A DNA stretch of 62,491 nt, from NCBI GenBank assembly GCA_030650275.1, contig JAUSEK010000026.1, positions 1 through 62,491 on the forward strand. The letters are read 5' to 3'. The notes below the pieces were generated by a model, which worked only from the letters and a program-made list of their open reading frames with translations, had not been told where the DNA came from and did not search any database. This document shows positions 21,201-29,788 of the stretch, piece by piece (position 1 is the first letter of the stretch; each line of letters starts with the position of its first letter). Source of the DNA: Candidatus Omnitrophota bacterium (GTDB lineage: Bacteria > Omnitrophota > Gorgyraeia > Zapsychrales > Fredricksoniimonadaceae). A program made the translations under genes and the position numbers.

Positions 21201-24200
21201 GGAAACTTATTGAAAGCCTGACCGGTCAGGGGAATACGCTTAGGCGCAGCGCCCTCAAGTTCAAGGCAGACCGTCGATTTAAGGATGTCAGGACGGCGTC
21301 GCAACAGGCCGAGGGGATGTTCCTGGAAGCTGTGCGTCTTGGCCAGGATGACCCCAGCACCCTTATGGCCCGTCATGCCCTCGGTCAGCTTTATTATGAC
21401 CGAGGGGCTTATTATCGGGGCATTGAAGTTTTGGAAGAAGCCCTGGACCTGATCGGCCGGTTTCGAGACGCGAATCCACAGGCAAGGCGATTGATGAAAT
21501 TTTTAGCCGGCCAGGAATCTCTTATGCTGGTGACTCTCGCCGGCATGTTGCTGAAAAACTGGCGCCTCCAGGAGGCTTTTAAGATCCTTACTGCCGGTGA
21601 TCCGGCCGTTCTCAAACCGCAGTTCATGGAAAGTCCGGGCGCCCATCGCATCCTTGCGGATGCCTTGATCCAGGCCATGCGTCCTGCCGAGGCCATCAAC
21701 GTCCTGACCACCAACGGCATTCACCTGAAACCTCTGCTGGCGCGGTACCCCGGATTCTCCCAGCGGCTTCTTGATACTGCCCTGTCCCGGATCAGAGACC
21801 AAGGGACGGTCAAGCCCGTTGACGGGGACATTCAATTCTGTCCTCTTGAGATCATAGACATGGCCAGAGCGCTTGCTCAAAAGAATAACCTTAACGTGGG
21901 CGATCTCATCCGGGAAGGGATCAAGGGTCTTCGTGAGGCGGACCGCACATACGATCCTAAAAAAGGAGATTCCTTTAAGACGTTTGCGTTAAAAAGGGTC
22001 CGGGGTGCCATGAAGGATTTCATCCGTCGCGATCGTGCCGCGCGTCAGTATGGCGGCGGATCCGTGCCGGATCGCGCCTCCGGCGGGAAATGGCCCGGAA
22101 AATGGCAGAGGTCCTATGACCGGATCCAGGAGCAGGTGACCCGCTGGACGGGCAATAAGGCATTGGGCTGGTGGGCGGGACAGGCGTTGGCGCCCGGGTT
22201 CACGGAGTCCGTTGTTTTTGTCGGCGGCACAAGCCTGTTATTGAGTTTGGGGGCAAATGCCCTGAAAAGTTGGGCTTTTGGTCTGCCGCTGGCCATGGCC
22301 CCGCCGGTGTTGCTCACCCTTGTCTTTACTCCGTTCCTTCTTTTTGCGTGGCGCCGTTTCCACGGACGGCAGAATCTCTTCGCGGCAGACCTTGCCCTCA
22401 TCAATCATCTTTCGTTATATAGAGCCGGCTTGACCGTTTTTATTTTGGTCCTTGCACATGCGGGCAGCATGCTTGTCATCGGTTCATATCTGACGGCCCT
22501 TTGGATCTCGCATACACCGGTTAATGCCAGGCATAATCCTTTCCGCGGTGACCACGGCCATGATTTACACAATTTTCCGGTTGCACGGTGGCTGCGCGAG
22601 AGGCGGGGGCGCATGACATTGCGGGACAATGAGGGCAGGGTATTTGAGTTTCGTTATTCGGGGCCGTTCCCTGTCTTTTTTGACCACCAGCATTTGCTGA
22701 CCATCTTCCATGACGGCCGCCAGATCGGTTACGCGCATTTTATGGTCAAAGGCGGTCAGGCGCGGATGTCCACTACGTTCGGGGGACGTCCGGCCATCAT
22801 GGTGGATAAAGCCCATCGCCACCGGGGCCTCGGCAGGTCTTTGATCATGTTGTTGTCGCAGTTGGCGGGGGCGTCCGGAGCGAAACGTGTTCTGGCAAAG
22901 GATGTGCTGCCTGAAGAGACGGGTTTTTATGAAGCCCTCGGTTTTCAGAGGGTTCCCAGCGGCCATGCGTGGCGTTTATCATATGAGCTGTTGTCGTTTG
23001 AAACTTTTTCCATGAGTAAAATTTTATCGCCCGTCGCTGCACCGCTTGTGGCGGACAAGAGCGATCCACAGGGAACAACTTTTTTTGCCCCTGTATCGGT
23101 TTTGGCCCTGACTGCGCGGTCCTGGGCGCCACTTTTAGGATTGTCACCGGAGGCCGCGCTTCTTATGCAAGCGATCGGATTGGCGATAGGGCTGGTAGCG
23201 ATGGCGATATGGTTTTATGTCCGGGGAAGATCAGTGCTTGGCCTTGGAGTCATGCCTGTTGCCGTTAATGGCAATGGCACCGATGACCAGAGCAAAGCAA
23301 ATCATAAAAAGATAGGACCATTCAAGACCGATCATAAGACACCCCTTTCATTATTCAAAAGCATTATAGCAGCGGCAAATAGGATTAAAAAGCAAAACCA
23401 TCCCATTATAAATATTTCCCAAAAGATCGTGCGGGCGACCACCTGGCCGAAAACAAGCGTCACGGCCGCCAAATTGCCAAGGTTGAAGAACGCTTTGCTT
23501 AATTCTTTGCGTTGGGTGGGATTGAATCTGATGCTGAACAACATGACAGGCCTCCTGCGGATTATTTTGGGGAGATGGATTGGTACAACAAGCGTGGGGA
23601 ACGCTTGGATGAAACGATTCAATGTAACATCCGGATATGGTTTTGTCAATATTGCGGCCTCGGCCGTTGTGATCACCTTTGGCCTGTTCGCCGCTGCGTC
23701 TGCCCTGACCCCGAGTGCCAGTGTGGTTCATGACATCGGCTGGGGCGGTGTTCTGGCGGCTGGGATCGCTGCGGTGACCATCGCAGCAACGGTCAATGGT
23801 TGGCTAAGGCGGTCACCCGACAGGATGGTCAAGGTCGCGGGACCTCCACAGATCGCCTGGTCGAGACATATGGATATCGGACAGATGCAGCGGACCGTTT
23901 TCCGTGGTCCATCCGGGTCCCTTGAGCGTTTGCTTGGCGAGGTCCTGGCTGTTCACAAGCCGGTCGTTGATGCCGGATCCGGCGAGAGCGGTGCGCTGGA
24001 GGGTGTTTCTCAAGCAAGCGCCGGGGCCGTCGTGTTTCACAACCCGTCCCCTGATGAGCCGACATTGAAGGATTTCGCAAGGGCATTGTACGTGCTTGAG
24101 CCGGGCGGATGGTTCGTTGTTCACCTCAGCGGTGGTTTTTTTGACCAAGAGAAGAGATTGGTCCAGATGTTGTATCAATTCAGCCGCGCGCGGGCGGGTT

Positions 24201-26041
24201 TCAGAGAACTTGTCGTTCTTGGGTCGCCGCGTCAGGAGGACAGGGAAGTATTCTTGCTGGCGCGTTATGGCGGCGGCAATGTACGGTCATTGTCCGCCGG
24301 GAAAGGCAGATCAGTGCTTGGTCTTGGAGTTCAGCCGATTACTGTTGATGGCGAGGAACAGCATCAAGGTAGCAAAACAAGCCAAGAAGATCATGTAGGG
24401 AAGGATTGGATTCATAGTGCTCTCCTTGTTTCAGACACATTACCTAACAGCATTATAGCCGATGCAAAGAACATCGCAAGGCAAAATACTCCTAATATAA
24501 AGATCGGAGCATCGAATGTTCCCAATACAACTTGGCCTATGATCAATCCGGAAAAACACAAATTACCGGAATTGAACAGAGCTTTTCCCATTTCCTTCGA
24601 CTGGACTTCGTTGAACTTGAGGTTAATACTGAACGGCGGCATGACAGGTCTCCTGCGGTTATTTGGGGAGAGAGTAGTTGGTACAACAAGCGCGGGGAGC
24701 GCTTCGATTGAATTTAATGTAGCATCGGCCGGTGGCTTTGTCAATATTGTTCTGGTGTTGAGCCTTGGGCTTGCGGCCGCGCTGGCTCCCCACATTGCGT
24801 ATTTGCTTGGTGTTTCTACGGGGCTTGTCCCGCTTGGCGCAACTATACTGATCGTACTGGCGGGGACCATATTTAGTATATGGATCATCGCCGGCCGGAG
24901 TGCGTTATCACGATTAGTCTTGTTTGTCAGATACGGCCTAAACCTGATTGGTTTTTTCCTCTTTGTCGGTACGCAAAATTTTCTTGTTTACAGCGTTTTA
25001 CTTCTACGCGCGACAGGATGGGCATATTTGCCTGCTTCAGTTGGAGATGTGGTGAAGGCGGCGATAATTTGGGTGGCGTCAACGGTGATTCTGTTGGTAG
25101 CGGGTCAGTGGATGACCCGTTTTATTGAGGATATGGGGGATCGTGTTGGAACGTTTATGACATGGTTTCGGTCGGACGAAATCAAACAAGCGAAGGCTGA
25201 GGAGGTTTTTCAAGAGTTCAAACGCGATGGGATTGTTCGTGTCCGTTGTGATCCACGTCTGGCCGCTGGTTTGCGTCTGGTTTCTGGCGTTGAGCCGACA
25301 CAATTCTACGAGCAAGTCCAAGAGGGAGGTCGGGATTGGACGACCGGAACGATTCTCTTTACGCCGGCGTTGACGGTCTCCAAACAGGTGATACGTTATC
25401 TCATCGTGCGCCGTGCCCTTTCGGCATATTACGATGCAACACAGGGATCTTTGCATCAAAACAATCTTCTTGAGTTTCCATTCTTGGGGGGAGACCTTTT
25501 TTGGCCGTTATGGGGAGACTGGGAGTCTTTGAAGCGGGGATACCGCTATCCGGTGATGATTCCGTACATTTTACTTCATCAGGTTTTCGTAAGCTCAGTT
25601 GCTCTTGTGGGCTTTGTCTTATTGTGGATAAATCCGTCAATGGAGATACTTTTGACTGCAGGATCCGGTAGAAGTGAAGTAACGCGAAGGATTTTTTGGC
25701 ACGTTAAGCAGTTTATTTTTCGATATCCGGTGGAGGACGGTCGCATCAGGTCCTGGTTAAGGGGCAGGCATCTTTTCAGTTTTGCCTTCCCTCTGGCTCT
25801 GACATTTCCGCTGTGGGCAACACCGCAGCACCTTGCCGTGCTCACAGCCATGGGGTTGTTGATCGTGAAGGCGGTTTTGTTGACGGGTATTGTGGCAGGA
25901 GCGGTGTGGCTTTTTCACCGCGCCGGGCAAAGAAGATCAGTGCTTGGCCTTGGAGTCGCGCCTGTTGCCGTTAATGGCAATGGCACCGATGACCAGAGCA
26001 AAGCAAATCAGAAAAAGATAGAGAAAAAGGGGACACCATAA
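2..26041 (+). CDS. Giant multidomain membrane-associated protein, 5'-partial (at least 8,663 aa)
   Basis: ORF track gives 50..26041. The frame is also stop-free from base 2 (PPRVIAYTVGDQTTYV before the ATG at 50), so the true start lies upstream of the window. Many recognisable domains share the frame; stop TAA at 26039-26041. Confidence 0.92.
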   Translation, partial: PPRVIAYTVGDQTTYVMPDDDIRTHLSRRGDTSDEIEGFIERVKQHERLHRERNGRGDALSDPAQEERAIFALQDTDASWWKDPKRTNVVMSVPIFSLRREVNDPGIGKFTDIGPYYRDHLAPLGIDAVLLLPHYATIDGSPYAVASPYSLNEDFIDWMEVDEVREEAAMYPDVLQELTAPSSEQQAVHHGSLHHRERAMALRAAERFWTREVPADSTRGKMFDDFVQRNRPWLDDYAEFMAVHEILGGECLTWSSQALEQAKREQTYSALVRLHMYAQWVADEQLRAAIAMVHEHGGKVLFDVPMFRGKNSVDVWKHRDHFKKAENPDRYPGIVRGELNERWGDLALWNWTRAGQEGYRFMLDPVAHWLDMGFDGARIDALHMAYNNGYGQLVSGDEPGNAYVSALARVFQEREKLSVAEAYEGRSGDIARRGFITVLGDWKRLSDHDGTDVNPRDPRYDDTRETFIQNFNAYMNSGNFSGKNARFIALVLGHQWGDPMPIKRITGDNGTRRSIWHYRIPLQSDADYKNRARFDAGDYLAAIKAIRQGNIWQAGDAISRTLSAAADTFVKHVNGTVEIWASSRDWFQQQWGRDTLIALPGLLLAMGRFDEARENIRSFARLQRNGLVPNRIQDTQHPERTEYNTVDGSMWFIQAIQSYVEATGDWNFVNEMLPTMRAIVESYQHGTEYERFEWPHRIYRIYMDPQDGLIVSPAQATWMDADPHHRGPVTPRDGKAVEINALWYADLKFLAEVEEQAGERSRAEAHRDLAGRVKISFNAKFWNAPEGALLDVIEGTDPYQGAIRPNMLIAVSRGGDLISPERQADVFASATKDLLTPYGLRTLSPRDSHYRGRYETWRQPYPHEADFPNHKDFAYHQGTVWPWLIGPYVDTLARVRQQQGVGEDEIQDEIRRLLSPLIEFLMTSPVGNIPEVFDGDAPHRAGGTRAQAWSVSEVLRVLTEYGVLGPPRDAGLAVPGLIALISAAAVGSFAQEIRETHPAEHRQLVEYGNLLARFEVQLTDQESTGPPWHPRYVKYTLGNEIYGIPDDEIRRQMNVWQIPTETIESFIKFINEHEEWHRLRNIGGIALSDPDAEEHAILTIQVNSIVQKSISSSAVSPVKDATALITHAAALMGKVRALLDEIETLRQLNLTLKEWALIRKTTINADARILPEGHLPDDGLLMEHRWIQAAKARELPEHILNFADNHEAELNFTETMLGNPIEFLKRAQILIAESPVLSEQTVLNITALVESANIRVDGVNQRVGPVRSRLNTFQSKMAKELRKATMAWGRNDGPGLQDPHEIFSYLLITLVTAAAVGLWLAAKWFIRNRGTVFRQRSADFLELLAARVDPKRISRSRLQEQAWIDSLTGLHNQRFFEAIMEKYVAIAKRSKTKLSMIIFDVDGLKQVNDRYGHIAGNRVLRHIADKLRDVVRDSDETARWGGDEFTVLLLNADLNGAAIVAEKIRAAVETPISAIIGAEMLPGQEDRKIAVSLGVAEYVQGDTGQSFLRKADSALYQAKRAGRNGVVVAATEMDQPPVPFVRHIVLQGRDYTMMYAVANPQTAAAVANLVLTSEARIAKAGGLNEWEGHLIARGRRNPAWFIRYVQQVLKENPYSLVARDAQEKIQGVVFVSLVDAKSAEELPARHTLMRYAHQRQGVRSAMVDFWVTGAVSGMADELLLSTKHLAQHLNRMQPETCRIERLFAYSTPRSYKEADDVSRAVIGPLSIEFYLASGNDPVLHGYHVRLGGTIVRIISKAWSSRHSNLGYAVVVQHPLIEPSKPFDPTTLSSWIFPTLLAAGLLARVLGLDMDHAGQQAGLFYGWLVNSLAGAVIVVWQWLRTHGIRLLPDGRYVYIARLVRRLAREDSPSLVSMDRVMDVLVQDHELMALISENRLLDPMARLIERFTEGAHIFRFNKSQQEAFVKMFEDKYTRTVSFDRDGLWVVELYTRPVTWKQKWQAFDESPEPIGTFRFYYHQNGKGPSLQIGYPEIHSDYRGRHLYSETVRAIVDVNNISYGTRVWHVVDEIRTLEALYGKIVGGQDEEAYPDRPEADRKILLRADIVHELNRRFGGVWRDEEFLKATVLGRPLAGLDRLALKATEGGLWMTGINGERAPAWEGPQAPSWLEDFWQDHPVIANPAEQERLKQWETGFVERLHDRFLLPLEDIRTFLEDVRQAMTVGQPDTRMDTRGVDIFLAQQGPSALTRVDAAYLRKRFEEFVPLYNNMAAALNGHAPVFGRARLLEEVFFTHLFLGRRFDMSAAQAHWAVNLYRQNNIPQGIILGWLARHSLKTAMNEEQAWLAFERDPNLMLRLAGLLTEDAHSGLHLVFYRLIKAKALSNVQHLAVLSADDEDGRREAFSRGLYKVIRAAIGYSYLAGHRIQKRMLSPKERESLRQIYAALLNFIPLAVKVVPLRVSRPSKHRRSFPITPGSKANDEKKKARRVDERLRQTRGLNFNDLRNFTPQDVDKHIDGGRNGPRLGDPHEAFSFILYILVTAAAAAVMWFVRSVRAELAGDLKQLERSKRDSGKIRMTFWVSTLAVGGAEKVVLDLMNNIDTRRFDIITETRDSKERYDVEITGAQRRGMYFIIKPLLYSKFRQYLSNRSGILRLLRLMLLLARSLRQAPIEYFIHKNTRPRIYHIHEYGIRQSGKKAIAKLAGVPVVMTTYHTFPKSNGPIRSLDDMITWANHFITRISFHYIDDVIVALTEAEKQEHIRVNRVPAEKIVVIPNGIDQRLFMEQADVEKVLDVRRKLHLPEDAFVVGAVGRLSLEKGHRHLVEAARIVLEEIPQAYFLIIGEGTERGNLTRQIEAAGLRGRVVMPGVQTHDSLPLYLAAMDVFTMPSLIEGQPLAKIEAMASGKAVIASKVGGMPETLDGAGILVPPADPQTLAREIIRLAKDPELRARLGRAARERAQLFSVEKMVEDYARLYQRLAANRGISLQPASASIDSGRNGMPKHEERHIPYGIHSRGWRNNNDVGHNLSGEWYRAPHGRRGVVEISIPVMGKFWTSMWARGDWTAFGRGYFGEMLTFLENFIEDVRRQNPAARLVDFGTGNLEVPRIIRDALTDFTVYAFDVADPSWLYRPDADHFFKTDIEAVGLLDGQVHAVTAVYVLEYARRMDNVLREIHRVLKPGGLAAIIAIHPRSKLVEFAAQNVNKGETWLKEMKPGLRGPDHLEIHKAGILARLNIIKWRLERAAEIPDTEEGMNAWLRRHGFVDIKLEHLHDQDSLLAWGVRVRKPVSNQSPAAPSASANLSGLDLHSLHDITHVFWLALGFVIAIVAAAVKRIRKGRQVHYYPTVDSWQEHERAVNFHSHAAHKTTRRALRIMDSVFAAFLAIGIIDVFLGGLGIAPLLRLVFSYLFANILVAVLVWLHEFVHVLFVPKEDRTLKNFWGNMSGSNWLHLAFRRPYTVPGRLPYVQIMSDLSDARRRWVNYSALIFTFLSSSAIVFVSWILFTRGTWPMPAGLAAIVAFRSAWAGDFRNPSKHTFHWGASDPGPTGPADEDIFGDLAHTLEKYFNSMDFPDSMAEDARHEFFGRLLQNIVEDRRLKHGILMSWVLWSLRSYEHGVNPLERVFDILGTPMPPQKMIRSAIREFERVLDRATHAVSMPARDYQMVGDRSARSAGRAVVKKQTPKQAPGHRGPTEGNMSGLLPLAAGVVGVGMTVVIAGWILASIYKPQVLKFVAGRAPPGPVRRIVLSVLGRLLPEQFIPIQNHLRRLVKGDFLLLKWLRRSTPILLDLNTTPQTVGPSPDHGTTDPGITVIPTDAGNPNAMGSYEVLYGTRFLGTHEHVALPDKRIVLYQYDELPKELRNVAIGHRRQEFVRWTENKMSQAVGYAHFTTRSAGFALDSVDLAGRRVLDVGMGEGTLAILAAKKGAKSVVGVDVYPRIIDVAQKNAELNRVTSQVRFYIQDAKQSIPGEDGSFDVIIMNVPRYQFYELVGALMLRYPMVQTFILGGSAQSMDRSRVLDISDKVVRLFRRRGFVFTAKFVDTINRYYDGRMWNTYIIHSPSVEAPNALRQYMGSMKTEFTTVVIVLSMFASAPGLPAGVAAAAVLAGLGLLVLGMTVVTGRGKKGPRGLSSKKVKLKAVATKQRYYLMRFILTTVDKGALDRLITHFSAVQKRHVSDVGTAIRQIVEKTRSQWKPDVPVPPEWGDIGRKFFDWAKDQEFVTVRTQQIRERAQELLSGRMRELFEVRAGLVSWRNLGKMNYDPNFLTRALEIIRTNLPLLDDGLIPSPGMAHDDLRGTKAMIMVTGRRVSWEGSLITAGIFGLIGLAAIGGSLSMQGIGLVAISAAGVYVIQGLVIMFLPLAVSRAGSLWARTRWGVPGPPDYPLIKPLRDMRYNYYTPFLEVTDRHQIINARLQAGFLFLPPLLQWIFYLPIGLLRAVHERPAHCTPLARLHEAHNELIAYPLEILFVFTGAIGYAFAATPEALLAGILIGLSIQIILSWWGHGREQAFREAVPDIILKADRPGLISRRVVLRTLVAGIAGTAVIWKMGDLQDPLEEQTAKQRGYEDWFADRDEWLAEGDMVNAALANRRGELLRAAQMVPVMAQMSPRVFYTWIASVESLEFFRGRAEPDGKIARGELQAWIEGYRNLSRQPNTPAPDMKTVEEVQQQLRLLAAQVAINPRDRRNPIPDRRPEARSVLDRRTMFAVMLGLPKLPPAPARLILDVGAGDGRTTQALALSNPNARIIMIDPSTNSFEAAKQRLKSFPNVEFVGRHVEQWDSSGLAGSADHIYFLFPFFLYRPYKHPISADTARRIAEKIFGLLMPGSGEFVMVTEFPEIISVFIKAFRAAQLQVDSEKVPTGDLVQHVPVAIHSDIYAYISKATEARFKTVLIIHARKPVEGISSPAKRGLSKLTVFLLAAGAGLTQLFVAAPWIGRVHAVGFAMVLLGFGVAMLGGNLAKLTRVLKRWREVSRFTAQERQDFTFFTRETIDTLAAGRPQKERDRFFKRIALKPLTKIHILLRYDSHLWRDLFFVAIISVLGAFEGWILGRALLHFGNTGVAIITWLGGIVFGTFALVRSRLPARSSANIIACIIPGGTTIFVNRRLTAGRRDRFVAAVPHETAHLLHEYELAAKDTSSVIQGVVELLWGEKTGRDTVIGDPGWYDEGRRLATIQDPAQRERELLQFSRREAHADDWAQSVVSGPGHPEPESMRPYGVALASYIYETIGRLRLEGAPFPERFGDINLYLRANLNLETRDIASVEQIAEAIARTSTLSPATVDTVLDNFTLSPEIRQGVAQLALKGGIVSHLRHFEVRRSRSAPPAVVRRSPEDPGHERHRSWGRQPRPRWLGGDEDVESDPLNGDWAIPALLRHHPKKPIVPSASDASPEPSRRAAAPSVLPASDVLVGLRTAMLRPGDRVLHVGSGRSRLPFLDASLGASDVFVTDARPGSLQVVAHPGVTFISRPVDVTRLNEDLRQERFDQITMWNVLSEAYFQGDRAHALMELIRALRPHGRIWVTDDHVRLSNGEARYVHDLLPEVADAMGYRIKVLAGPKDLPGAYADVLAYELWPDHRIDKLKGLSKTSVFLLAAGAGLTQLFVAAPWIGRVHDAGLAMVLLGFGAAALGAGLAVSIKEKLAMAREHLPWTTGAVAGALVIIPFLRWNFSDPDNLLVGNLMVWAQVLLTGFLSGFGVEARGTFVNFMTMIFLPFVELTLARLWLRVAVNNVRATFFGGLFFGLSAAFFGYAIGHPLLDLARMALGSPPQDSISNIITFWIRGGQFLKVAPTVPQFLEVVAAVFGVWYLSERSARWIDGKIEPRLRRRVERRRLAVEKAVRIADQAARRAERQAERAVESIRKEKPKKKIVAPAVTKTAAPASQEIIKPAKAAAPTIATPIETAEPASVEEPFVLSALSISDLESPDTAEPFILTSLDIIEPEFDFEFNVALGSAEEPYTGQSNLDFETPMPESAPAPSAADESVAEDLDSWLGDDELGREIAARLGQMPVEEVESLLDLVWSDPSLSYAEKRQMLADLLPKENILIEQTLRFDLGRDPLGLSLIVWLETMTVPEIQQRFKDIHGRKALIKKVLQRSMNPQMAELIADAARRSGQRPLIVIERVADILGKGAAKRSVQAVVEQIRSPSSDDDLIRFASKLSALLLAAGVSLFGLGLNIPVHVQEWFHTAGLAMVLLGFGVAVLGMAVAQSPSTVMRIRGELAKRQAQHPEELINVTAIAKVLHLSRQAIYDAFERDPALEKEFRRAHHASAQAQIRRRPTRSRVGSSDARLRASNRNLLQAQRAHSRSMGARLRPAVGKIVAAYQERLLTLDCRLDATTAALEHGPPALAAIQSEVVVDWTFSRDRRRDDAVRQFLASKGVVTGGDLLAVYGKLRRYYAADRRFRLIRAALRERIGPAFLDDWTFKSNLQFDARIKKVLFTAQPPIFIMQQLLACTEADLQDLSLGPTIIRAIQAALRRHGRTLHQNAAAPSGGTALLAAADNSQRIVCRIGIIGGTGWVGSQFTRWLLRKSNRTIDVLVRPGSPRIASIPNSPAVHLRTAALLDLDEMGSWVRDNDVLFDFAAWSNLPPEPSDQEKWQLNVLAHAYRVALAGRHGTHIIFPSSSTVYRLHAGDADPPLKEDDLRPDPVVDQFIQVTVEQFSAYATGVLGGAPQRDEEFIKDFLYDHPVPANVSFYPLSKLIAERLVLGHEHALVLRFPEAYGPGETAHKAIPNMLRAIVEGAMQLGVRDDQKQFIFIEDVFRVLEVTMDARVDPARRVMNVPGPQVLDTFADVIPEIRRITGSTIQFNRVTGLQNPAMDGSRLQEQLGVVPGVLLEEGLSHTYAWWQSRSSHAAPTDAAPAVSKMGLSKLSVLLAAVGVGLFGLGLNIPVHVQAWFHTAGLVMILLGAGVAVLGMAGYKGKSFKRWKREKDLRYKHGGAAFRALVPTGMALHFTGLVSGIRHLRMSALPHMGWWPALGMTTGILLASLGWSIAASWVVEADQHRQQQKQSRLRFFGGVEHLPYMTPIAIGTLMVVVFQYMAVSILVERGVSVVLSTAEVMGSIVGLWGIYKTARTRSVLAMFILAGLYAWWFGVPFSGLLARLGWVGIVAVLAGAAVPPDRKLIESLTGQGNTLRRSALKFKADRRFKDVRTASQQAEGMFLEAVRLGQDDPSTLMARHALGQLYYDRGAYYRGIEVLEEALDLIGRFRDANPQARRLMKFLAGQESLMLVTLAGMLLKNWRLQEAFKILTAGDPAVLKPQFMESPGAHRILADALIQAMRPAEAINVLTTNGIHLKPLLARYPGFSQRLLDTALSRIRDQGTVKPVDGDIQFCPLEIIDMARALAQKNNLNVGDLIREGIKGLREADRTYDPKKGDSFKTFALKRVRGAMKDFIRRDRAARQYGGGSVPDRASGGKWPGKWQRSYDRIQEQVTRWTGNKALGWWAGQALAPGFTESVVFVGGTSLLLSLGANALKSWAFGLPLAMAPPVLLTLVFTPFLLFAWRRFHGRQNLFAADLALINHLSLYRAGLTVFILVLAHAGSMLVIGSYLTALWISHTPVNARHNPFRGDHGHDLHNFPVARWLRERRGRMTLRDNEGRVFEFRYSGPFPVFFDHQHLLTIFHDGRQIGYAHFMVKGGQARMSTTFGGRPAIMVDKAHRHRGLGRSLIMLLSQLAGASGAKRVLAKDVLPEETGFYEALGFQRVPSGHAWRLSYELLSFETFSMSKILSPVAAPLVADKSDPQGTTFFAPVSVLALTARSWAPLLGLSPEAALLMQAIGLAIGLVAMAIWFYVRGRSVLGLGVMPVAVNGNGTDDQSKANHKKIGPFKTDHKTPLSLFKSIIAAANRIKKQNHPIINISQKIVRATTWPKTSVTAAKLPRLKNALLNSLRWVGLNLMLNNMTGLLRIILGRWIGTTSVGNAWMKRFNVTSGYGFVNIAASAVVITFGLFAAASALTPSASVVHDIGWGGVLAAGIAAVTIAATVNGWLRRSPDRMVKVAGPPQIAWSRHMDIGQMQRTVFRGPSGSLERLLGEVLAVHKPVVDAGSGESGALEGVSQASAGAVVFHNPSPDEPTLKDFARALYVLEPGGWFVVHLSGGFFDQEKRLVQMLYQFSRARAGFRELVVLGSPRQEDREVFLLARYGGGNVRSLSAGKGRSVLGLGVQPITVDGEEQHQGSKTSQEDHVGKDWIHSALLVSDTLPNSIIADAKNIARQNTPNIKIGASNVPNTTWPMINPEKHKLPELNRAFPISFDWTSLNLRLILNGGMTGLLRLFGERVVGTTSAGSASIEFNVASAGGFVNIVLVLSLGLAAALAPHIAYLLGVSTGLVPLGATILIVLAGTIFSIWIIAGRSALSRLVLFVRYGLNLIGFFLFVGTQNFLVYSVLLLRATGWAYLPASVGDVVKAAIIWVASTVILLVAGQWMTRFIEDMGDRVGTFMTWFRSDEIKQAKAEEVFQEFKRDGIVRVRCDPRLAAGLRLVSGVEPTQFYEQVQEGGRDWTTGTILFTPALTVSKQVIRYLIVRRALSAYYDATQGSLHQNNLLEFPFLGGDLFWPLWGDWESLKRGYRYPVMIPYILLHQVFVSSVALVGFVLLWINPSMEILLTAGSGRSEVTRRIFWHVKQFIFRYPVEDGRIRSWLRGRHLFSFAFPLALTFPLWATPQHLAVLTAMGLLIVKAVLLTGIVAGAVWLFHRAGQRRSVLGLGVAPVAVNGNGTDDQSKANQKKIEKKGTP
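260..1570 (+). other. 4-alpha-glucanotransferase (GH77/MalQ-like) domain in giant ORF
   Basis: VPIFSLR..GIGKFTD, SPYAVASPYSLN, YAQWVADEQL, LFDVPMF, WGDLALWNW; RID, AE and HD catalytic-type motifs present. Confidence 0.8.
1736..2880 (+). other. Amylo-alpha-1,6-glucosidase (glycogen debranching enzyme C-terminal) domain in giant ORF
   Basis: WGRDTLIALPGL, YNTVDGSMWF, TWMDA, TPRDGKAVEINALWY, IRPN, LLTPYGLRTLSP, YHQGTVWPWLIG, IPEVFDGD..AQAWSV. Confidence 0.88.
3089..3304 (+). other. Repeated HExxH module, copy 2 (in giant ORF)
   Basis: PRYVKYTLGN..PDDEIR..IESFI..EHEEWHRLRN.GGIALSDPDAEEHAI; HEEWH at 3218-3232. Confidence 0.7.
3866..3960 (+). repeat. GRN(D/G)..DPHE.FS..LVTAAA transmembrane linker, copy a
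   Basis: Shares AGACCCGCACGAG and ATTAGTGACAGCCGCGGC with 7409-7512. Confidence 0.75.
4085..4585 (+). other. GGDEF diguanylate cyclase domain in giant ORF
   Basis: DSLTGLHN, FDVDGLKQVNDRYGHIAGN, RDSD-ETARW-GGDEF (4322-4336), ADSALYQAKRAGRN. Confidence 0.92.
4640..5330 (+). other. Possible GNAT-like domain in giant ORF
   Basis: Alpha/beta pattern ending DPVLHGYHVRLGGTIVRII..SNLGYAVVVQH; weak family recall. Confidence 0.35.
5880..6080 (+). other. GNAT-like acetyltransferase motif in giant ORF
   Basis: IGYPEIHSDYRGRHLYSETV resembles the acetyl-CoA-binding motif A. Confidence 0.45.
7409..7512 (+). repeat. GRNG..DPHE.FS..LVTAAA transmembrane linker, copy b
   Basis: Homologous to 3866-3960; its first 20 nt match 8840-8859 at 19/20. 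Confidence 0.75.
7586..8800 (+). other. GT-B family 4 glycosyltransferase domain in giant ORF
   Basis: GGAEKVV, VIPNGID, VGAVGRLSLEKG, DVFTMPSLIEGQPLAKIEAMASG (E-X7-E), VGGMPE. Confidence 0.92.
9137..9720 (+). other. Class I SAM methyltransferase fold #1 in giant ORF
   Basis: LVDFGTGNLE, AFDVA, YVLEY..VLREIHRVLKPGG. Confidence 0.8.
9960..10440 (+). other. Intramembrane HExxH (site-2/M50-like) segment in giant ORF
   Basis: Hydrophobic helices with LVWLHEFVHVLF (HEFVH at 10118-10132). Confidence 0.5.
11555..11990 (+). other. Class I SAM methyltransferase fold #2 (PrmA-like) in giant ORF
   Basis: GRRVLDVGMGEGTLAILAAKKGAKSVVGVDV..AQKNAELN; FDVIIMNVP. Confidence 0.85.
14012..14545 (+). other. 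Class I SAM methyltransferase fold #3 (TrmB-like) in giant ORF
   Basis: ILDVGAGDG, IIMIDP, DHIYFLFP, GEFVMVTE. Confidence 0.75.
14576..14716 (+). repeat. TM-hairpin cassette copy 1 (GLSKLTVFLLAAGAG...AMVLLGFGVAMLG)
   Basis: High nucleotide similarity to 16589-16730, 18306-18452 and 20434-20586. Confidence 0.9.
14960..15700 (+). other. TM-anchored zincin-like segment in giant ORF
   Basis: Two TM helices, then FVAAVPHETAHLLHE (HETAH at 15209-15223). Confidence 0.5.
16088..16560 (+). other. Class I SAM methyltransferase fold #4 in giant ORF
   Basis: PGDRVLHVGSG, FVTD, FDQITMWNVL, LIRALRPHGRIWVTD. Confidence 0.75.
16589..16730 (+). repeat. TM-hairpin cassette copy 2
   Basis: GLSKTSVFLLAAGAGLTQLFVAAPWIGRVHDAGLAMVLLGFG; middle nearly identical to copy 1. 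Confidence 0.9.
18306..18452 (+). repeat. TM-hairpin cassette copy 3
   Basis: SKLSALLLAAGVSLFGLGLNIPVHVQEWFHTAGLAMVLLGFGVAVLGM. Confidence 0.9.
18533..18601 (+). other. Helix-turn-helix motif in giant ORF
   Basis: INVTAIAKVLHLSRQAIYDAF. Confidence 0.65.
18911..19292 (+). other. Tandem RNA polymerase alpha-CTD-like repeats in giant ORF
   Basis: Two DWTF-starting units. The second (ARIKKVL..IFIMQQLLACTEADLQDLSLGPTIIRAIQAALRRHGRTL) follows the alpha-CTD pattern [47 protein letters not shown]. Confidence 0.6.
19363..20390 (+). other. NAD-dependent epimerase/dehydratase (extended SDR) domain in giant ORF
   Basis: IGIIGGTGWVG, FPSSSTVY, YPLSK (YxxxK), LRFPEAYGPG, FIFIEDV. Confidence 0.88.
20434..20586 (+). 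repeat. TM-hairpin cassette copy 4
   Basis: GLSKLSVLLAAVGVGLFGLGLNIPVHVQAWFHTAGLVMILLGAGVAVLGM; middle matches copy 3 at 68/71 nt. Confidence 0.9.
21300..21800 (+). other. TPR-like helical repeats in giant ORF
   Basis: AEGMFLEAVRL..ARHALGQLYYDRGAYYRGIEVLEEALDL. Confidence 0.6.
21848..22033 (+). other. Sigma-70 region 2-like domain (FliA-type pattern) in giant ORF
   Basis: DLIREGIKGLREADRTYDPKKGDSFKTFALKRVRGAMKDFIR. Confidence 0.8.
22600..22990 (+). other. GNAT acetyltransferase domain in giant ORF
   Basis: IMVDKAHRHRGLGRSL..FYEALGF. Confidence 0.8.
23231..23335 (-). CDS. Nested antisense small membrane protein B1, 34 aa (MIGLEWSYLFMICFALVIGAIAINGNRHDSKAKH)
   Basis: SD-like AAGGGGTG upstream; ATG overlaps the TGA of ORF A1 (ATGA); one TM helix plus basic tail; homologue at 24311-24415. 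Confidence 0.7.
   Translation of the reverse strand: MIGLEWSYLFMICFALVIGAIAINGNRHDSKAKH
23332..23544 (-). CDS. Nested antisense 2-TM small protein A1, 70 aa (MLFSIRFNPTQRKELSKAFFNLGNL...)
   Basis: AGGAGG 6 nt before the ATG at 23544; conservative substitutions relative to homologue 24412-24642. Confidence 0.75.
   Translation of the reverse strand: MLFSIRFNPTQRKELSKAFFNLGNLAAVTLVFGQVVARTIFWEIFIMGWFCFLILFAAAIMLLNNERGVL
23621..23649 (-). promoter_or_regulatory. Sigma-70 promoter of nested antisense unit 1
   Basis: TTGACA (23649-23644), 17 nt spacer, TGn-TACATT (23626-23621). Confidence 0.75.
23948..24290 (+). other. Degenerate SAM methyltransferase fold #5 in giant ORF
   Basis: PVVDAGSGE..FARALYVLEPGGWFVV. 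Confidence 0.55.
24311..24415 (-). CDS. Nested antisense small membrane protein B2, 34 aa (MNPILPYMIFLACFATLMLFLAINSNRLNSKTKH)
   Basis: AAGGAG 6 nt before ATG; ATGA overlap with the A2 stop; same length as B1. Confidence 0.7.
   Translation of the reverse strand: MNPILPYMIFLACFATLMLFLAINSNRLNSKTKH
24412..24642 (-). CDS. Nested antisense 2-TM small protein A2, 76 aa (MPPFSINLKFNEVQSKEMGKALFNSGNL...)
   Basis: AGGAG SD before the ATG at 24642; homologous to A1. Confidence 0.75.
   Translation of the reverse strand: MPPFSINLKFNEVQSKEMGKALFNSGNLCFSGLIIGQVVLGTFDAPIFILGVFCLAMFFASAIMLLGNVSETRRAL
24716..24744 (-). promoter_or_regulatory. Sigma-70 promoter of nested antisense unit 2
   Basis: TTGACA (24744-24739), 17 nt spacer, TGn-TACATT (24721-24716). 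Confidence 0.75.
25937..26024 (-). pseudogene. Truncated third copy of small ORF B (LYLFLICFALVIGAIAINGNRRDSKAKH), no in-frame start
   Basis: 25932-26021 matches 23226-23315 at 87/90 nt; upstream part replaced by a palindrome. Confidence 0.7.
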
Positions 26042-26054
26042 AGTGTCCCCTTTT
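26025..26054. terminator. 12-bp perfect hairpin AAAAGGGGACAC-cataaa-GTGTCCCCTTTT; likely bidirectional terminator or REP-like element
   Basis: Perfect inverted repeat with A/T tails; the giant ORF stop codon lies in its loop. Confidence 0.7.
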
Positions 26055-26104
26055 GCCCGGAATAGGACATTTCTACTTTGCCTTTACAGTGAAGCCTCTG
26101 TACC

Positions 26105-26133
26105 TTGACACTCGCCCGTCGGGGTGTTATACT
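26105..26133 (+). promoter_or_regulatory. Sigma-70 promoter
   Basis: TTGACA-17-TGn-TATACT, 12 nt before ATG 26146. Confidence 0.8.
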
Positions 26134-26145
26134 TTGGCCACAACT

Positions 26146-27555: not shown

Positions 27556-27821
27556 CGGCTTTCCCGCGTAAGCCGCTCCGCGATCCACATGCGGATCAAT
27601 GTCAAATACCCCAGACCTTTCTTGGCCGCGGATTCTTTCAGGGAGGCGATCATGTGGTCATCAACCCGGAGGGAGATGAGTCGTTTGCGGGGCTTGCGAA
27701 AATGCACATCTTTGACTTCCACAAGATCATCTTCAAACTCGGTTATGGAATGGGTCTTCCAAAACTGGACCTCCTCATATTCTGACTTGAATCTTGGAAT
27801 AGTTTTTCGTTTGGTTTTCAT
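27552..27821 (-). CDS. brnA: BrnA/CopG-type antitoxin
   Basis: IPRFKSEYEEVQFWKTH..ISLRVD..LKESAAKKGLGYLTLIRMWI; directly downstream of a BrnT-like gene. Confidence 0.8.
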   Translation of the reverse strand: MKTKRKTIPRFKSEYEEVQFWKTHSITEFEDDLVEVKDVHFRKPRKRLISLRVDDHMIASLKESAAKKGLGYLTLIRMWIAERLTRESR

Positions 27822-27827
27822 ATTATA

Positions 27828-28091
27828 TTATCTCCTGTAGAACCGCTTACGTTCAGCTTGAGACATGTCCCAGGCTGTGATCACCCGCACGGTTTCCTTT
27901 TTCATAAGATCGGCAATAATGGTCAAGTAACGGCCGCCATCTGTTCGACCTAATAAGCAATATCTTCCTAAGCCGGTTTTAAAAATAAGAGGGTTGTTAT
28001 AACAGGCCTCTTCTGCTTCATCAGGCGCTACGTGGTGCTCAGTAATATGGCTGATGTTGTTAAGGTCCCATTTAAAGAACTGAAAGAACAT
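27828..28091 (-). CDS. brnT: BrnT family ribonuclease toxin
   Basis: FKWDLNNISHI..EAEE..LLGRTDGGRYL..RVITAWDMSQAERKRF. Confidence 0.85.
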   Translation of the reverse strand: MFFQFFKWDLNNISHITEHHVAPDEAEEACYNNPLIFKTGLGRYCLLGRTDGGRYLTIIADLMKKETVRVITAWDMSQAERKRFYRR

Positions 28092-28104
28092 TTGTATCTC
28101 CTAA

Positions 28105-28133
28105 AGTATATATGTATATACAAAAGATGTCAA
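28105..28133 (-). promoter_or_regulatory. brnTA promoter with palindromic GTATATAC operator-like site in the spacer
   Basis: TTGACA-17-TATACT on the minus strand. Confidence 0.75.
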
Positions 28134-28135
28134 CA

Positions 28136-29659
28136 TTATTTCATCCTGTCTAATGTTCTATAGCCAATCGCCTCGGCCAAATGCGCGGGATTTATCTCGT
28201 CGCTGGCGTCCAGGTCGGCCACAGTGCGGGCCACTTTCAGCACGCGGTCATGCGCCCGGGCCGAGAGCCCCAGGCGCTCGGTCGCTGCTTTCAGTAAATC
28301 TTTGCTTTGCTCGTCTAAAACGCAATATTTTTTAATGTCTTTACCTGTCATCCCCGCGTTGTGACCCACACCGCTGTCCTTAAAGCGTTCGTGCTGGACC
28401 ATTCTCGCCCGGCTGGTGCGTTTCTTGACGCGCGCCGAGGGCTCGGGTTCGGCGGTGCCCCACAGATCTTCGTTTTTCAGCGCCGGCACTTCCAGATGGA
28501 TATCAATGCGGTCCAGCAAAGGCCCGGAGATCTTGTTGAAATACTGCTCGATCTGTGTCGGCGCGCACACGCATGTTTTGCGGTGGCTCATGCGCCATCC
28601 GCACGGGCAGGGGTTCATGGCCGCCACCAGCATGAACCGGGCGGGAAAACACACACTGCCTTTGGCGCGCGCGACCGTGACACATCCGTCCTCCAGCGGC
28701 TGGCGCAGGGCTTCCAGCGCATGCCGGCTGAATTCCGGCAATTCGTCCAGAAAAAGCACCCCGTTGTGCGCGAGGGTTGTTTCGCCGGGCCGGGGGATGG
28801 ACCCGCCGCCGACGAGGGCGATGTCCGAGGCCGTGTGATGGGGATTTCTAAGCGGCCGCTGGCGCATGATCACCAGAGGATGTTTTAAAAGTCCCATCAC
28901 CGAGTGGATCTTGGTGGTTTCCAGGGTTTCCTGGCGCGACATGTCCGGCAAAATGGTCGGCATGCGTTTGGCCAGCATGGTTTTGCCGCTTCCCGGCGGC
29001 CCTACCAAAAGAACATTGTGCCCGCCTGCCGCGGCGATCTCCAGACCCCGTTTGGCATGGGCCTGGCCTTTGACGTCGCAAAAGTCCATGTCCCAGACCC
29101 AGGGGGTTTCGGCACTTTTGTCGTCGGGATCAAAAGGCGGGATGCTTTCCATACAGGTCAGAAAATGCACGACTTCTTTCAGGCAGGCGGCGGGGTAGAC
29201 CGCGACACTCCGGGGCAGGGCGGCTTCACGGGCATTGGCCGCGGGCACGACCAGTCCCTTGAGGTTTTGACCCTTGGCCTTTAAGGAAGCGGCCAGGGTG
29301 CCGTGCACGGCATGGATATTTCCGTCGAGCGAAAGTTCTCCCAAAAACGCGAAGCGGTTTAAGGGCTCAAGAGGGACCTGTCCGCTGGAGGCCAAAATGC
29401 TCAAAGCAATGGCCACCTCGAAATTCGGGCCTTCTTTTTTGGTGTCCGCGGGCGCCAGGTTCACTGTGATGCGGCCGGAGGGAAAATCAAAACCGCTGTT
29501 CTTGATGGCCGAACGCACCCGTTCGCGGCTTTCGCGCACGGAGCTGTCCGGAAGCCCCACCACCGTGAACAAAGGAAGGCCGGGGCCGCAATCCGCTTCA
29601 ACGGTGACCAAATACCCGTCCAAGCCGGCAATGCCGAAGCTGAGAGTTTTTGATAACAT
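28136..29659 (-). CDS. comM: ComM/YifB Mg-chelatase-like AAA+ ATPase
   Basis: VGLPDSSVRESRERVRSA, GPPGSGKT, LFLDELPEF, MNPCPCG, ISGPLLDRID; start placed at MLSKTLSF. Confidence 0.93.
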   Translation of the reverse strand: MLSKTLSFGIAGLDGYLVTVEADCGPGLPLFTVVGLPDSSVRESRERVRSAIKNSGFDFPSGRITVNLAPADTKKEGPNFEVAIALSILASSGQVPLEPLNRFAFLGELSLDGNIHAVHGTLAASLKAKGQNLKGLVVPAANAREAALPRSVAVYPAACLKEVVHFLTCMESIPPFDPDDKSAETPWVWDMDFCDVKGQAHAKRGLEIAAAGGHNVLLVGPPGSGKTMLAKRMPTILPDMSRQETLETTKIHSVMGLLKHPLVIMRQRPLRNPHHTASDIALVGGGSIPRPGETTLAHNGVLFLDELPEFSRHALEALRQPLEDGCVTVARAKGSVCFPARFMLVAAMNPCPCGWRMSHRKTCVCAPTQIEQYFNKISGPLLDRIDIHLEVPALKNEDLWGTAEPEPSARVKKRTSRARMVQHERFKDSGVGHNAGMTGKDIKKYCVLDEQSKDLLKAATERLGLSARAHDRVLKVARTVADLDASDEINPAHLAEAIGYRTLDRMK

Positions 29660-29759
29660 CAATAGGACCAATGATTTGGGGAGATTTGAAGAACTACGCG
29701 CCCACGGGGAATGGGCGCCAAAGCATTTCTTGCTTTTTAAGGAAGCAAGATTATAATAC

Positions 29760-29788
29760 AACCTAACAAAATTATCTTTTTCCGTCAA
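29760..29788 (-). promoter_or_regulatory. Putative comM promoter
   Basis: TTGACG-17-TGn-TAGGTT on the minus strand. Confidence 0.5.

Follow-up and report, generated by a model that had tools for sequence, protein, structure and literature searches.

A C-rich leader element with hairpin-displayed C-runs upstream of comM in Omnitrophota-type bacteria

The ComM helicase integrates incoming DNA in natural transformation, and in the Omnitrophota genome considered here the leader of its gene shares a hairpin and tail with two small operons that lie antisense within a giant gene; what is this shared sequence, and on which molecule does it act? The DNA analysed (62,491 nucleotides, hereafter the window) contains, on its minus strand, three hairpins with a 5-nt UCCCC loop, each followed after 13-15 nt by UCUCCCCAAA, exactly where the initial annotation had placed them. 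Scanning both strands of the window for exact 5-nt TCCCC loops on stems of at least 6 bp revealed no further hairpin, and all three appear in both the minimum free energy (MFE) and centroid structures computed by RNAfold. The exact 10-mer UCUCCCCAAA occurs three times in the window against about 0.12 occurrences expected (2 x 62,491 / 4^10); when one mismatch was allowed, the eight occurrences in the window did not differ significantly from the 5.2 found in shuffled sequences.

The comM gene (28136..29659, minus strand) encodes a YifB/ComM Mg-chelatase-like AAA+ helicase of 507 aa with ChlI, Mg_chelatase and Mg_chelatase_C domains, whose NCBI homologues are named YifB family, and it has no Shine-Dalgarno (SD) sequence upstream. 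A promoter-like site on the same strand (29760..29788) is composed of TTGACG (29788-29783), a 17-nt spacer ending in TGT and TAGGTT (29765-29760), and is adjoined by TATAAT at 29755-29750; judging from this arrangement, transcription of comM probably starts downstream of the site. Conservation of the block TTGACG-N12-TTATGTTAGnyTA extends over 47 distinct related leaders, with TATGTTAG lying outside the search pattern. It is followed by a 5'-proximal hairpin (29729..29749, minus strand; CUUGCUU-CCUUAAA-AAGCAAG) with a conserved AAAAAGCAAG box, the loop of which reads CCCCAAAAA in many relatives. Further downstream there are two C-boxes, also on the minus strand: C-box 1 (29698..29718), an 8-bp hairpin GCGCCCAU-UCCCC-GUGGGCGC located 13 nt before UCUCCCCAAA, and C-box 2 (29675..29684), which is UCUCCCCAAA itself, single-stranded and ending 15 nt before the AUG. 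The C-box 1 loop is closed by a U-G pair when the minus strand is read, whereas plus-strand RNA would have a C/A mismatch there, confirming that the stem closes fully only as minus-strand RNA. This hairpin is identical in a 97% relative (L081), and the differences listed for the contigs of four other metagenomes include none within it. Close relatives keep both boxes with altered spacer and flanks, and insertions adjoin the hairpin in L081 and in two further sequences, X4 and X5. A further relative, P0004, stands at 83% ComM identity.

The other two copies head cassettes that are nested antisense within an open reading frame of 8663 aa and have leaders of about 70 nt with two boxes each. Cassette 1 (all features on the minus strand) begins with a promoter-like site at 23621..23649 (TTGACA-17-TACATT, with a TG extension), followed by C-box 1 (23589..23607), the hairpin CAAGCGU-UCCCC-ACGCUUG lying 13 nt before UCUCCCCAAA, and by C-box 2 (23566..23575), UCUCCCCAAA at 9 nt upstream of an AGGAGG Shine-Dalgarno sequence (23556-23551). 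The predicted ORF A1 (23544-23332) specifies 70 aa with two TM helices and is coupled by an ATGA overlap to ORF B1 (23335-23231, 34 aa). Cassette 2, likewise on the minus strand, has a promoter-like site at 24716..24744 (TTGACA-17-TACATT), C-box 1 at 24688..24704 (hairpin AAGCGC-UCCCC-GCGCUU, 15 nt before UCUCCCCAAA), C-box 2 at 24662..24671 (UCUCCCCAAA, 7 nt upstream of an AGGAGA Shine-Dalgarno sequence at 24654-24649), ORF A2 (24642-24412, 76 aa) and ORF B2 (24415-24311, 34 aa). The distance from the second box to the start codon, 15 nt at comM, is 19-21 nt in the cassettes. No homologue of ORF A1 was found in the protein collection, and the cassette 1 ORFs gave only a sub-threshold match to Phage_holin_2. 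Translation of the plus frame across both cassettes matched a single protein, whose contig (L155) shares the methyltransferase module only and carries no cassette. Relatives of the cassettes were viewed indirectly, through metagenome contigs aligned to the window, and in these contigs C-box 1 of cassette 1 is kept despite different spacers. Because the leader signal is under selection elsewhere, there is independent support for regarding the two antisense cassettes as real transcription units.

The two cassette units are paralogous copies of one block of about 390 nt (23226-23610 and 24306-24708; repeat families D1, D8, D9 and D4), so the window holds two independent occurrences of the motif rather than three, the compensatory change between units 1 and 2 counts as a single event, and the independent comparison within the window is that of cassette with comM.

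To follow the leader beyond this genome, related loci were retrieved with a pattern that comprised only the promoter and the 5' hairpin and was therefore blind to the motif. This yielded 68 metagenome loci, and a set of 52 comM leaders (47 distinct) was assembled from 46 metagenome loci, the window and five loci reached via ComM homologues. C-run statistics refer to 43-44 distinct leaders from Omnitrophota-type bacteria, many of them related, so that the counts are not independent events. These leaders contain 89 runs of at least four C in 3,901 nt, compared with 20.9 +/- 4.1 in shuffled sequences, and 3 runs of at least four G in the same 3.9 kb, their overall composition being 30% C and 14% G. 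At least one C-run is present in 42 of 44 leaders and at least two in 38. The runs measure 4-7 nt and are located past the promoter, within the untranslated leader. The family-wide feature, 4-7 C with A/U flanks, is looser than UCUCCCCAAA, the box itself being genome-specific: it reads UCUCCCCAAA in this genome and UAACUCCCCCUA in the main subfamily. Accordingly, the claim that loop and tail are fixed was borne out for a C-rich loop and tail, whereas the exact UCUCCCCAAA belongs to this genome and its close relatives. Some comM loci labelled as Omnitrophota (L003, L048) are without the element.

The C-runs are found preferentially in hairpin loops. Of 87 C-runs, 20 are enclosed by stems of at least 7 bp, whereas shuffling of the 3' flank left 1.0 +/- 1.0 (maximum 5 in 1000), and no comparable stem enrichment was seen around the A-runs and T-runs of the same leaders; about 43% of the leaders have no stem of at least 5 bp around any C-run under the criteria used. 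Among 13 hairpins with 5-nt loops both sides change at all seven pairs, 98.9% of cells are paired compared with 50.4% in shuffles, and four U-G pairs are compatible with the sense strand only. The covariation score of these hairpins, 1.375, exceeds the 0.308 of shuffled sequences and was reached by none of 500 shuffles. Differing stems around the same loop at the orthologous position were observed in L083/L084 (GAUGCU-UCCCC-AGCGUC) and L086 (CUUCCCA-CCCCU-UGGGAAG), both in the range of 62-65% ComM identity, and in about 20 metagenome leaders. A covariance model built from the three window copies (R1) recovered these copies and L081 at E < 1e-13, the rest being at noise level; such a model, which the initial annotation had recommended, is thus able to find its own sequences and the closest relative but is too sequence-specific to go further. 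Since, in addition, MAFFT did not bring the divergent stems into register, a descriptor scan with controls was used instead, and the alignment, registered by artificial AG anchors, served for pair counts only. Together, the C-run enrichment and the loops displayed in 43-44 leaders support the proposal of a cis-acting RNA motif with covarying stems on the sense strand, and we regard the motif as a real RNA element in the untranslated leader of Omnitrophota-type comM.

Among the neighbouring genes sampled, the element is specific to comM. Run over both strands of the flanking loci (about 0.38 Mb, thus 0.76 Mb in total), the descriptor gave 23 hits, 19 of which fall in comM leaders. In other phyla, the upstream regions of comM from 79 genomes among the matches listed contain 11 runs of four C in 7.9 kb, none of the regions having two, and 21 upstream regions of ComM genes with 49-58% identity from many phyla, again among the matches listed, lack the motif; descriptor hits in other phyla are G-rich and away from gene starts. 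When the comM box of each related locus was looked for elsewhere in that locus, no further copy turned up. The genes comEC, comF, dprA and those for pili are located outside the window and the flanks, and the conserved box was observed at comM. When viral contigs were searched with TCCCC-N16-26-WAATCTCCCCAA, one unrelated phage family and chance matches were returned.

The element is apparently undescribed. At gathering thresholds Rfam 15 matches only two tRNAs in the window, a permissive Rfam scan of 23400-29900 gave no match on the three leaders, and no description of such an element was found in Rfam or in the literature searched. Several known kinds of repeat or signal were also considered and rejected. 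A DNA uptake sequence does not agree with just three copies in 62 kb, nor does a G-quadruplex or i-motif agree with the usual two or three runs. Phase-variable homopolymeric tracts need about 8 nt or more for frequent slippage, and the runs here measure 4-7 nt and are found in the leader rather than in a promoter spacer or reading frame. The comM hairpin of the window was flagged as terminator-like, with the tail GTAGTTCTTC; an intrinsic terminator or attenuator was rejected because the sequence after the hairpin is U-rich, A-rich or mixed in orthologous leaders. A dispersed palindrome of the REP or MITE type was rejected given that 19 of the 23 hits occupy the orthologous comM position, that the stems differ and that the window has three copies. 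A free-standing sRNA with C-rich loops was rejected in view of the start codon 15 nt (comM) or 19-21 nt (cassettes) past the second box and the lack of a conserved U-tract, the leaders having in common with sRNAs of the sX13, RsaE and RNAIII type runs of 3-5 C in the apical loops of stable hairpins.

Could the C-rich strand simply be the wrong strand to read? It is conceivable that what matters is the plus strand, with GGGGA serving as Shine-Dalgarno or CsrA-type sites for segments of the giant gene, or else an operator in double-stranded DNA or a small mobile palindromic repeat inserted on three occasions. On the plus strand an in-frame ATG (MKRFNV) does follow the GGGGA loop of unit 1 at 8 nt, a pair of GGA-containing sites separated by about 25 nt is reminiscent of CsrA targets, and the insertions beside the hairpin in L081, X4 and X5 indicate that hairpin modules are mobile in leaders. 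However, the corresponding plus-strand position of unit 2 reads ATT instead of ATG, and the U-G pairs suit the minus strand only. Every comM leader has the C-runs in the sense orientation of comM, with no gene at a constant distance downstream on the G-rich strand. A sequence-specific DNA palindrome is excluded because stem sequences vary freely, and the orthologous position before comM, where 19 of 23 hits lie, is unlike that of dispersed repeats, so that we consider any such explanation extremely unlikely. An effect in cis within the sense-strand RNA is also very improbable in our judgement: the C-boxes would pair with the SD or GGA region of their own mRNA, sequestering it and perhaps acting as a thermosensor. 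The UCUCC of the unit 2 tail is paired with the SD GGAGA in the MFE structure and in the centroid alike, and a GGA is retained 8-10 nt upstream of the AUG in subfamily leaders, but this pairing is missing from the unit 1 centroid, the possible pairing amounts to just 3-5 bp, and comM in the window has no SD to sequester. Moreover, the predicted unpaired probability is 0.83 for C-run bases compared with 0.50 for other bases, and the region from -15 to +6, with a predicted openness of 0.53, is not more closed than average.

The same predicted openness would suit a proximal C-box that acts as an SD-independent ribosome-binding or enhancer element through 16S rRNA or S1, with no dedicated regulator, the hairpin organising the leader or protecting its 5' end. 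In 24 of 41 leaders 15-20 nt separate the last C-run from the AUG, and an SD-like 4-mer accompanies a proximal box in 3 of 27 leaders versus 12 of 19 otherwise (counts uncorrected for phylogeny). Selection for fast translation in a reconstituted E. coli system yielded C-rich non-SD sites that lie within about 18 nt of the AUG, show complementarity to 16S rRNA and have CCCCC, CUCCC and CCCCA among their top motifs, yet such sites are reported to be inefficient in E. coli in vivo (PMC3310771); they are also synthetic, whereas the box here is specific to one gene and comes with a structured second box. Most genes of the window are without an SD, yet the box is present only at comM and the two cassettes, the flanking loci (about 0.38 Mb) have it almost exclusively at comM, and the cassettes carry it together with the strong AGGAGG or AGGAGA. 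In several lineages that have an SD the C-boxes persist 33-108 nt from the AUG, indicating that they are not always at the ribosome-binding region, and the second box in a covarying hairpin loop is left unexplained; we therefore find this explanation unlikely. Still less probable, in our estimate, is that the leader is a Rho utilisation (rut) site at which Rho ends comM transcription early when neither translation nor some other factor prevents this. In enterobacteria mgtA, corA and rho are established cases of attenuation by Rho in the 5' leader, and the comM leader resembles a rut site in being C-rich, nearly devoid of G-runs and largely unstructured, with its C-runs predicted to be unpaired. 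On the other hand, rut sites require YC dinucleotides dispersed over about 60-80 nt rather than of short homopolymeric runs, part of the stretch here is a selected hairpin, and the cassette leaders fit two boxes into their short length. A rut site requires neither short, discrete runs nor the display of one of them in the loop of a selected stem, nor again a conserved distance to the AUG, all of which are features of these leaders.

The most likely function of the element is post-transcriptional control of initiation through a partner that reads the C-boxes, either a G-rich RNA or a protein. To the more definite reading, that these are conserved cis-acting C-boxes of an mRNA leader, read by a trans-acting partner and controlling translation initiation, we give an even chance. 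The element consists of two, sometimes three, C-runs (UCCCC, CCCCC or CUCCCC with A/U flanks) in a single-stranded, G-poor leader, one of them usually in the loop of a hairpin whose stem sequence is free as long as pairing is kept, and the last one unpaired just upstream of the ribosome-binding region. It belongs to comM leaders in a large Omnitrophota-type clade, and in this genome the UCCCC loop and UCUCCCCAAA also head two paralogous operons for putative small membrane proteins; the shared motif suggests that comM and the cassettes may be co-regulated. A G-rich RNA, or an RNA-binding protein that is C-specific and probably dimeric, could recognise the displayed C-boxes as a bipartite site, and its binding at the AUG-proximal box would control access of the 30S subunit and hence translation, and secondarily mRNA stability. 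In leaders without an SD the proximal C/A-rich box is probably also a ribosome standby or enhancer site, and we propose that occupying it would for this reason silence the gene.

Among known systems, the leaders bound by CsrA/RsmA match in layout: of two copies of a motif, one sits in a hairpin loop on a stem that varies and the other is single-stranded near the start codon, and the spacing of about 20-30 nt found here suits a dimeric binder. The CsrA/RsmA motif, however, is A(N)GGA, in place of which the leaders have UCCCC or CCCCC, and its site overlaps the SD, whereas the proximal box here is 15-20 nt upstream of the AUG. A CsrA/RsmA-binding leader was rejected, given the UCCCC and CCCCC loops on the sense strand and the scarcity of G4 runs; GGGGA loops are present on the antisense strand only, where a GGA reading would not concern a leader. 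We know of no CsrA-like reader of C-runs.

With regard to gene function, there is a precedent in Legionella, where the sRNA RocR and its chaperone RocC, a FinO-domain protein, form duplexes with the 5' UTRs of comEA, comEC, comF and comM and block translation (PMC6744872). There too DNA-uptake mRNAs including comM are under post-transcriptional control through their 5' UTRs, a control into which conjugative elements tap (PMC6744872), but the phylum is another one, the sequence is unrelated, and the genes that share the box here are small membrane-protein cassettes instead of com genes. C-rich loops are known from Xanthomonas sX13, in which 4C loops pair with 4G motifs (PMC3771888), and from the S. 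aureus sRNAs of the RNAIII/Rsa type, which use UCCC loops as seeds (PMC2790875). Like the runs of 3-5 C described here, these are placed in hairpin loops, and they function as interaction modules for G-rich partners near start codons; they differ in being carried by free-standing sRNAs with terminators, the G-motif being on the mRNA, so that the polarity here is reversed, since the C-loops lie on the mRNA leader 40-60 nt before the start codon. GcvB, finally, silences enhancer motifs upstream of the SD (PMC3879156). Similarly, a G-free, pyrimidine- and A-rich element upstream of the ribosome-binding region could both aid initiation and receive a repressor RNA, although the GcvB targets are CA/ACA repeats in enterobacterial transporter mRNAs and have no second copy displayed by a hairpin (PMC3879156).

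A more ambitious reading, which we hold to be rather doubtful, is that there is a dedicated post-transcriptional C-box regulon in Omnitrophota, a mirror of the GGA-reading Csr system, in which a G-rich RNA or C-specific RNA-binding protein would recognise the UCCCC boxes and so switch DNA-uptake and transfer functions, comM among them, together with small membrane-protein cassettes. Under this regulon reading the partner in this genome could be the giant gene's own mRNA: because the cassettes are antisense to it, the exact complement of the comM boxes (UUUGGGGAGA and a GGGGA loop) is present twice in this mRNA, and its transcription would be coupled to silencing of comM. The predicted duplexes between the giant-gene plus strand and the comM leader (-42.6 and -45.5 kcal/mol) are not clearly better than those of shuffled sequences (-36 +/- 4.5 kcal/mol), and they give antisense cross-talk no support beyond the trivial 10-nt complement. 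The window has no gene for a G-rich RNA complementary to the boxes, and a candidate sRNA at 42574-42696 is not complementary to them.

Omnitrophota are uncultivated, possibly host-dependent nanobacteria, and a clearly covarying leader element, conserved in a large clade, offers a concrete handle on how they control DNA uptake. Its sequence logic of displayed C-runs is not used by any catalogued bacterial leader. The element would define a regulon that can be counted by genome scanning; its predicted partner, be it a G-rich RNA or a C-reading protein, could be traced through co-variation; and it presents a natural case for asking whether a C-rich sequence can substitute for a Shine-Dalgarno sequence in vivo. 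As a minor observation, the permissive Rfam scan picked up a terminator-like fragment of CsrC at 26025-26054 and a chance match to a snoRNA.

Exactly three hairpins with a five-nucleotide UCCCC loop on a 6-8 bp stem were found on the minus strand of the window, each trailed after 13-15 nt by UCUCCCCAAA. They lie in unit 1 (hairpin 23607-23589, tail 23575-23566) and unit 2 (hairpin 24704-24688, tail 24671-24662), the leaders of two cassettes nested in a giant plus-strand ORF, and in the leader (hairpin 29718-29698, tail 29684-29675) of comM (28136-29659, minus strand), a gene of the YifB/ComM family. Re-scanning thus returned the same sites as the initial annotation. The exact 10-mer occurs three times in the window, where about 0.12 is expected by chance (2 x 62,491 / 4^10); a one-mismatch search was uninformative (8 found, 5.2 expected). 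MFE and centroid predictions both contain all three hairpins, and a covariance model of the kind that the annotation had proposed, trained on these sites, recovered them and no fourth in the window. The three leaders are not all independent, since units 1 and 2 are paralogous copies of one block of about 390 nt (23226-23610 and 24306-24708).

Each block carries on the minus strand a promoter-like site (TTGACA-17-TACATT), a leader of about 70 nt with the C-box motif, a Shine-Dalgarno (SD) sequence (AGGAGG or AGGAGA), a first ORF of 70 or 76 aa of the two-helix membrane type (ORF A) and a second of 34 aa (ORF B), ATGA-coupled to the first. The plus frame of the giant ORF (8663 codons, 50..26041) is unbroken across both blocks. 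No homologues of ORF A were found in the protein collection, and its best and sole family match, Phage_holin_2, is sub-threshold. The genome comes from a groundwater sample; in related cassettes from other groundwater metagenomes the hairpin and a CUCCCC box are retained, while spacer and promoter vary. A truncated third cassette copy (25932-26021), 97% identical to 23226-23315 and devoid of the ORF B start codon, adjoins a 13-bp bidirectional terminator (window 25932-26054 for both) with the TAA of the 8663-aa ORF in its loop. The minus strand of the giant ORF also contains a hairpin of 7 bp with a C-box in its loop (15867-15887, GGGGUUG-UCUCCCC-CAACUCC), possibly due to chance, as no second box, promoter or ORF was seen nearby. 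Two CUCCCC boxes 24 nt apart in the last module (25488-25518, minus strand), without a hairpin, are probably a coding coincidence, since the plus strand there encodes GGD...WGD.

In the comM leader the element is preceded by a promoter-like site and then a 5'-proximal hairpin, the transcription starts of all leaders being inferred from promoter-like sequence. The tail lies 15 nt from the ATG, and no SD sequence precedes comM in the window. In L081, a relative whose ComM is 97% identical, hairpin and tail are unchanged, and the leader differs by one spacer change and, upstream, by the insertion of an additional hairpin of 24 nt. The leader is also covered by contigs from four other metagenomes, whose listed differences are at 29688 (spacer) and 29673 (after the tail), with insertions at 29718, just upstream of the hairpin; no listed difference lies inside hairpin or tail. 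Close relatives carry additional small hairpins between the 5' hairpin and the C-loop hairpin that are not alike (L081:560-600; contigs of metagenome runs X4 and X5, window 29718-29733), so hairpin modules come and go in the comM leader while the two C-boxes keep their place. Directly downstream of comM, on the same strand, there are genes for a BrnT-like toxin (27828-28091) and a CopG/BrnA-like antitoxin (27552-27821), with a near-consensus promoter of their own (TTGACA-17-TATACT, 28133-28105).

Synteny is conserved, with DUF212 divergent from comM, at three further loci whose ComM is 62-65% identical, and their leaders have the same build with different stems. L083 has GAUGCU-UCCCC-AGCGUC followed by ACUUCCCCAAUU, ending 13 nt before AUG; L086 has CUUCCCA-CCCCU-UGGGAAG followed by AAAUCCCCUACAUCC, ending 17 nt before AUG; and L082 carries CUUCCCCCAG as its first box and ACCUCCCCCG as its second, 16 nt before AUG. 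In L083, the 62% relative (NCBI assembly), a gene call of 39,654 aa starts about 9 kb from comM (L083:20230-21539), so giant genes close to comM are not unique to the window. On the minus strand of L086 (reverse-complement positions about 5659-5705), an rlmN-like gene is preceded by a palindrome, UUCCCCAAAUGGGGAA, which stands beside GGGGACCCC; the palindrome pairs a C-box with its own G-complement, and the box may be sequestered in this form.

Because promoter and 5' hairpin are common to four leaders, a pattern built from them that ends before the motif (TTGACR-N25-28-ATTATA-N13-AAAWAGCAAG) was run on the metagenome collection. It gave 68 loci, 46 of them followed by a ComM N-terminus, which together with the window, L081-L084 and L086 make 52 leaders, 47 distinct and many related. 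The ComM N-termini behind these leaders show 55-83% identity to NCBI proteins labelled Omnitrophica/Omnitrophota. In the 44 distinct leaders of at most 180 nt (3,901 nt), 89 C-runs of at least four were counted, against 20.9 +/- 4.1 in shuffles, and only three such G-runs; 42/44 leaders contain at least one C-run and 38/44 at least two. C-runs occupy hairpin loops well above chance: stems of at least 7 bp flank 20/87 C-runs, compared with 1.0 +/- 1.0 when the 3' flank is shuffled, an excess absent for A-runs and T-runs. The end of the last C-run is 15-20 nt upstream of the AUG in 24/41 leaders. C-run bases have a predicted unpaired probability of 0.83 (0.50 for the remaining bases), and by these predictions the cytosines are kept single-stranded, one set in the loop and one next to the ribosome-binding region.

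Counted apart from the parts fixed by the pattern, TTATGTTAGnyTA is conserved as an extended -10, 17 nt after TTGACG (window 29729-29788 and 46 related loci). The constancy of AAAAAGCAAG in the metagenome loci is imposed by the pattern (AAAWAGCAAG); outside it, the box was seen only in the four design leaders (as AAATAGCAAG in L086), and the sequence it pairs with changes from lineage to lineage, a hint of a sequence-specific role. Three comM leaders (L102, L140, L148) reach 460-520 nt, with a 23S_rRNA_IVP (four-helix-bundle) gene inserted within (Pfam E = 1.6e-28, L140 copy); GTCGTAAGTCATAAGT-like repeats flank the insert in L102 and L140, and in L148 C-boxes stand before it and again just before comM.

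The covariation of the stems around a constant C-rich loop, proposed initially, was borne out in 13 hairpins with a loop of 5 nt, 11 of them from comM leaders and two from the cassettes, a set chosen for having a stem and with its register forced by artificial flanking anchors: both sides vary in 7/7 stem pairs, 98.9% of cells are paired (50.4% shuffled, 31-47% with the partner slid), and the covariation score is 1.375 versus 0.308, a value reached by 0/500 shuffles. Given how the set was made, these pair counts document stem variety, and it is the shuffled-flank test that gives unbiased evidence of the hairpin. The element is under selection. It is also read on the sense RNA strand, as the annotation had it: in every leader the sense strand of comM is the C-rich one, unit 2 has no plus-strand ATG, and four U-G pairs would not match on the opposite strand, so a plus-strand element was rejected. 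A conserved intrinsic terminator was rejected because the sequence 3' of the hairpin varies, and a dispersed mobile repeat because the orthologous position is kept and the stems differ.

The element is limited to few transcription units. A descriptor (stem of at least 6 bp, loop of at most 8 nt with CCCC, second C-run 8-50 nt on) gave 23 matches in 0.76 Mb of Omnitrophota-type loci (both strands), 19 of them in comM leaders and one a tRNA; in the window it returned the three sites and one match within coding sequence. Other phyla gave 5.9 matches per Mb and viral contigs 1.8 per Mb, all of these being G-rich and away from real starts, and 79 comM upstream regions of other phyla hold 11 C4 runs in 7.9 kb, none with two. 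These counts indicate that the element is specific to particular genes and is not general to the starts of these largely SD-poor genomes. Some Omnitrophota-labelled comM loci (L003, L048) are without it, so it is the mark of a clade rather than of the phylum as a whole. No Rfam family matches the element and no paper describing it was found, in agreement with its presentation as an undescribed cis RNA motif.

Within the window genome, cassette and comM leaders have the same loop and 10-mer tail, while other genomes use other flanks at comM (e.g. UAACUCCCCCUA). A shared trans-acting partner would give such uniformity, which, with two independent sites, is no more than suggestive of one. A promoter-to-terminator unit without an ORF (42574-42696, minus strand), a candidate small RNA carrying AAGGAGGGUCAGGGAUAG, is G-rich, with only 3-4 nt of complement to UCUCCCCAAA or the UCCCC loop.

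The element probably acts at translation initiation, the step it would control, through a hypothetical partner reading the C-boxes. The nearest precedents are CsrA-type bipartite sites, with the same geometry but the opposite base; sX13 (PMC3771888) and S. aureus sRNAs (PMC2790875), in which hairpin loops rich in C base-pair with G-motifs close to start codons; GcvB, which silences enhancer elements upstream of the SD (PMC3879156); and RocR/RocC, which represses comM and other uptake genes via their 5' UTRs (PMC6744872). The proximal box may in addition stand in for the SD, as a standby or enhancer site of the ribosome, as suggested by the tendency of the two to exclude each other (co-occurrence with an SD-like sequence in 3/27 versus 12/19; Fisher p = 3e-4, kinship ignored). 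That the box does this with no regulator is the main rival, and C-rich non-SD sites do function in a purified system (PMC3310771), but gene specificity and the second, loop-displayed box would then be left unexplained, and we regard it as unlikely. Rho-dependent attenuation would suit the composition of a C-rich leader but neither the selected hairpin nor the positional constraint, and appears still less probable than a regulator-free SD substitute. Sequestration of the SD in cis by a C-box, predicted by structure for unit 2 only, is very improbable.

On the plus strand, at about 51630-51691, 52385-52427 and 54255-54273, two other recurrent hairpin modules, GUCACCCCCGAAUGUUUUUAUCGGGGGUCCAG and GAUUCCCGCUUUCGCGGGA-AUG, directly precede the starts of unrelated genes; they are assigned to a different element because their C-run lies in the stem, not in the loop.
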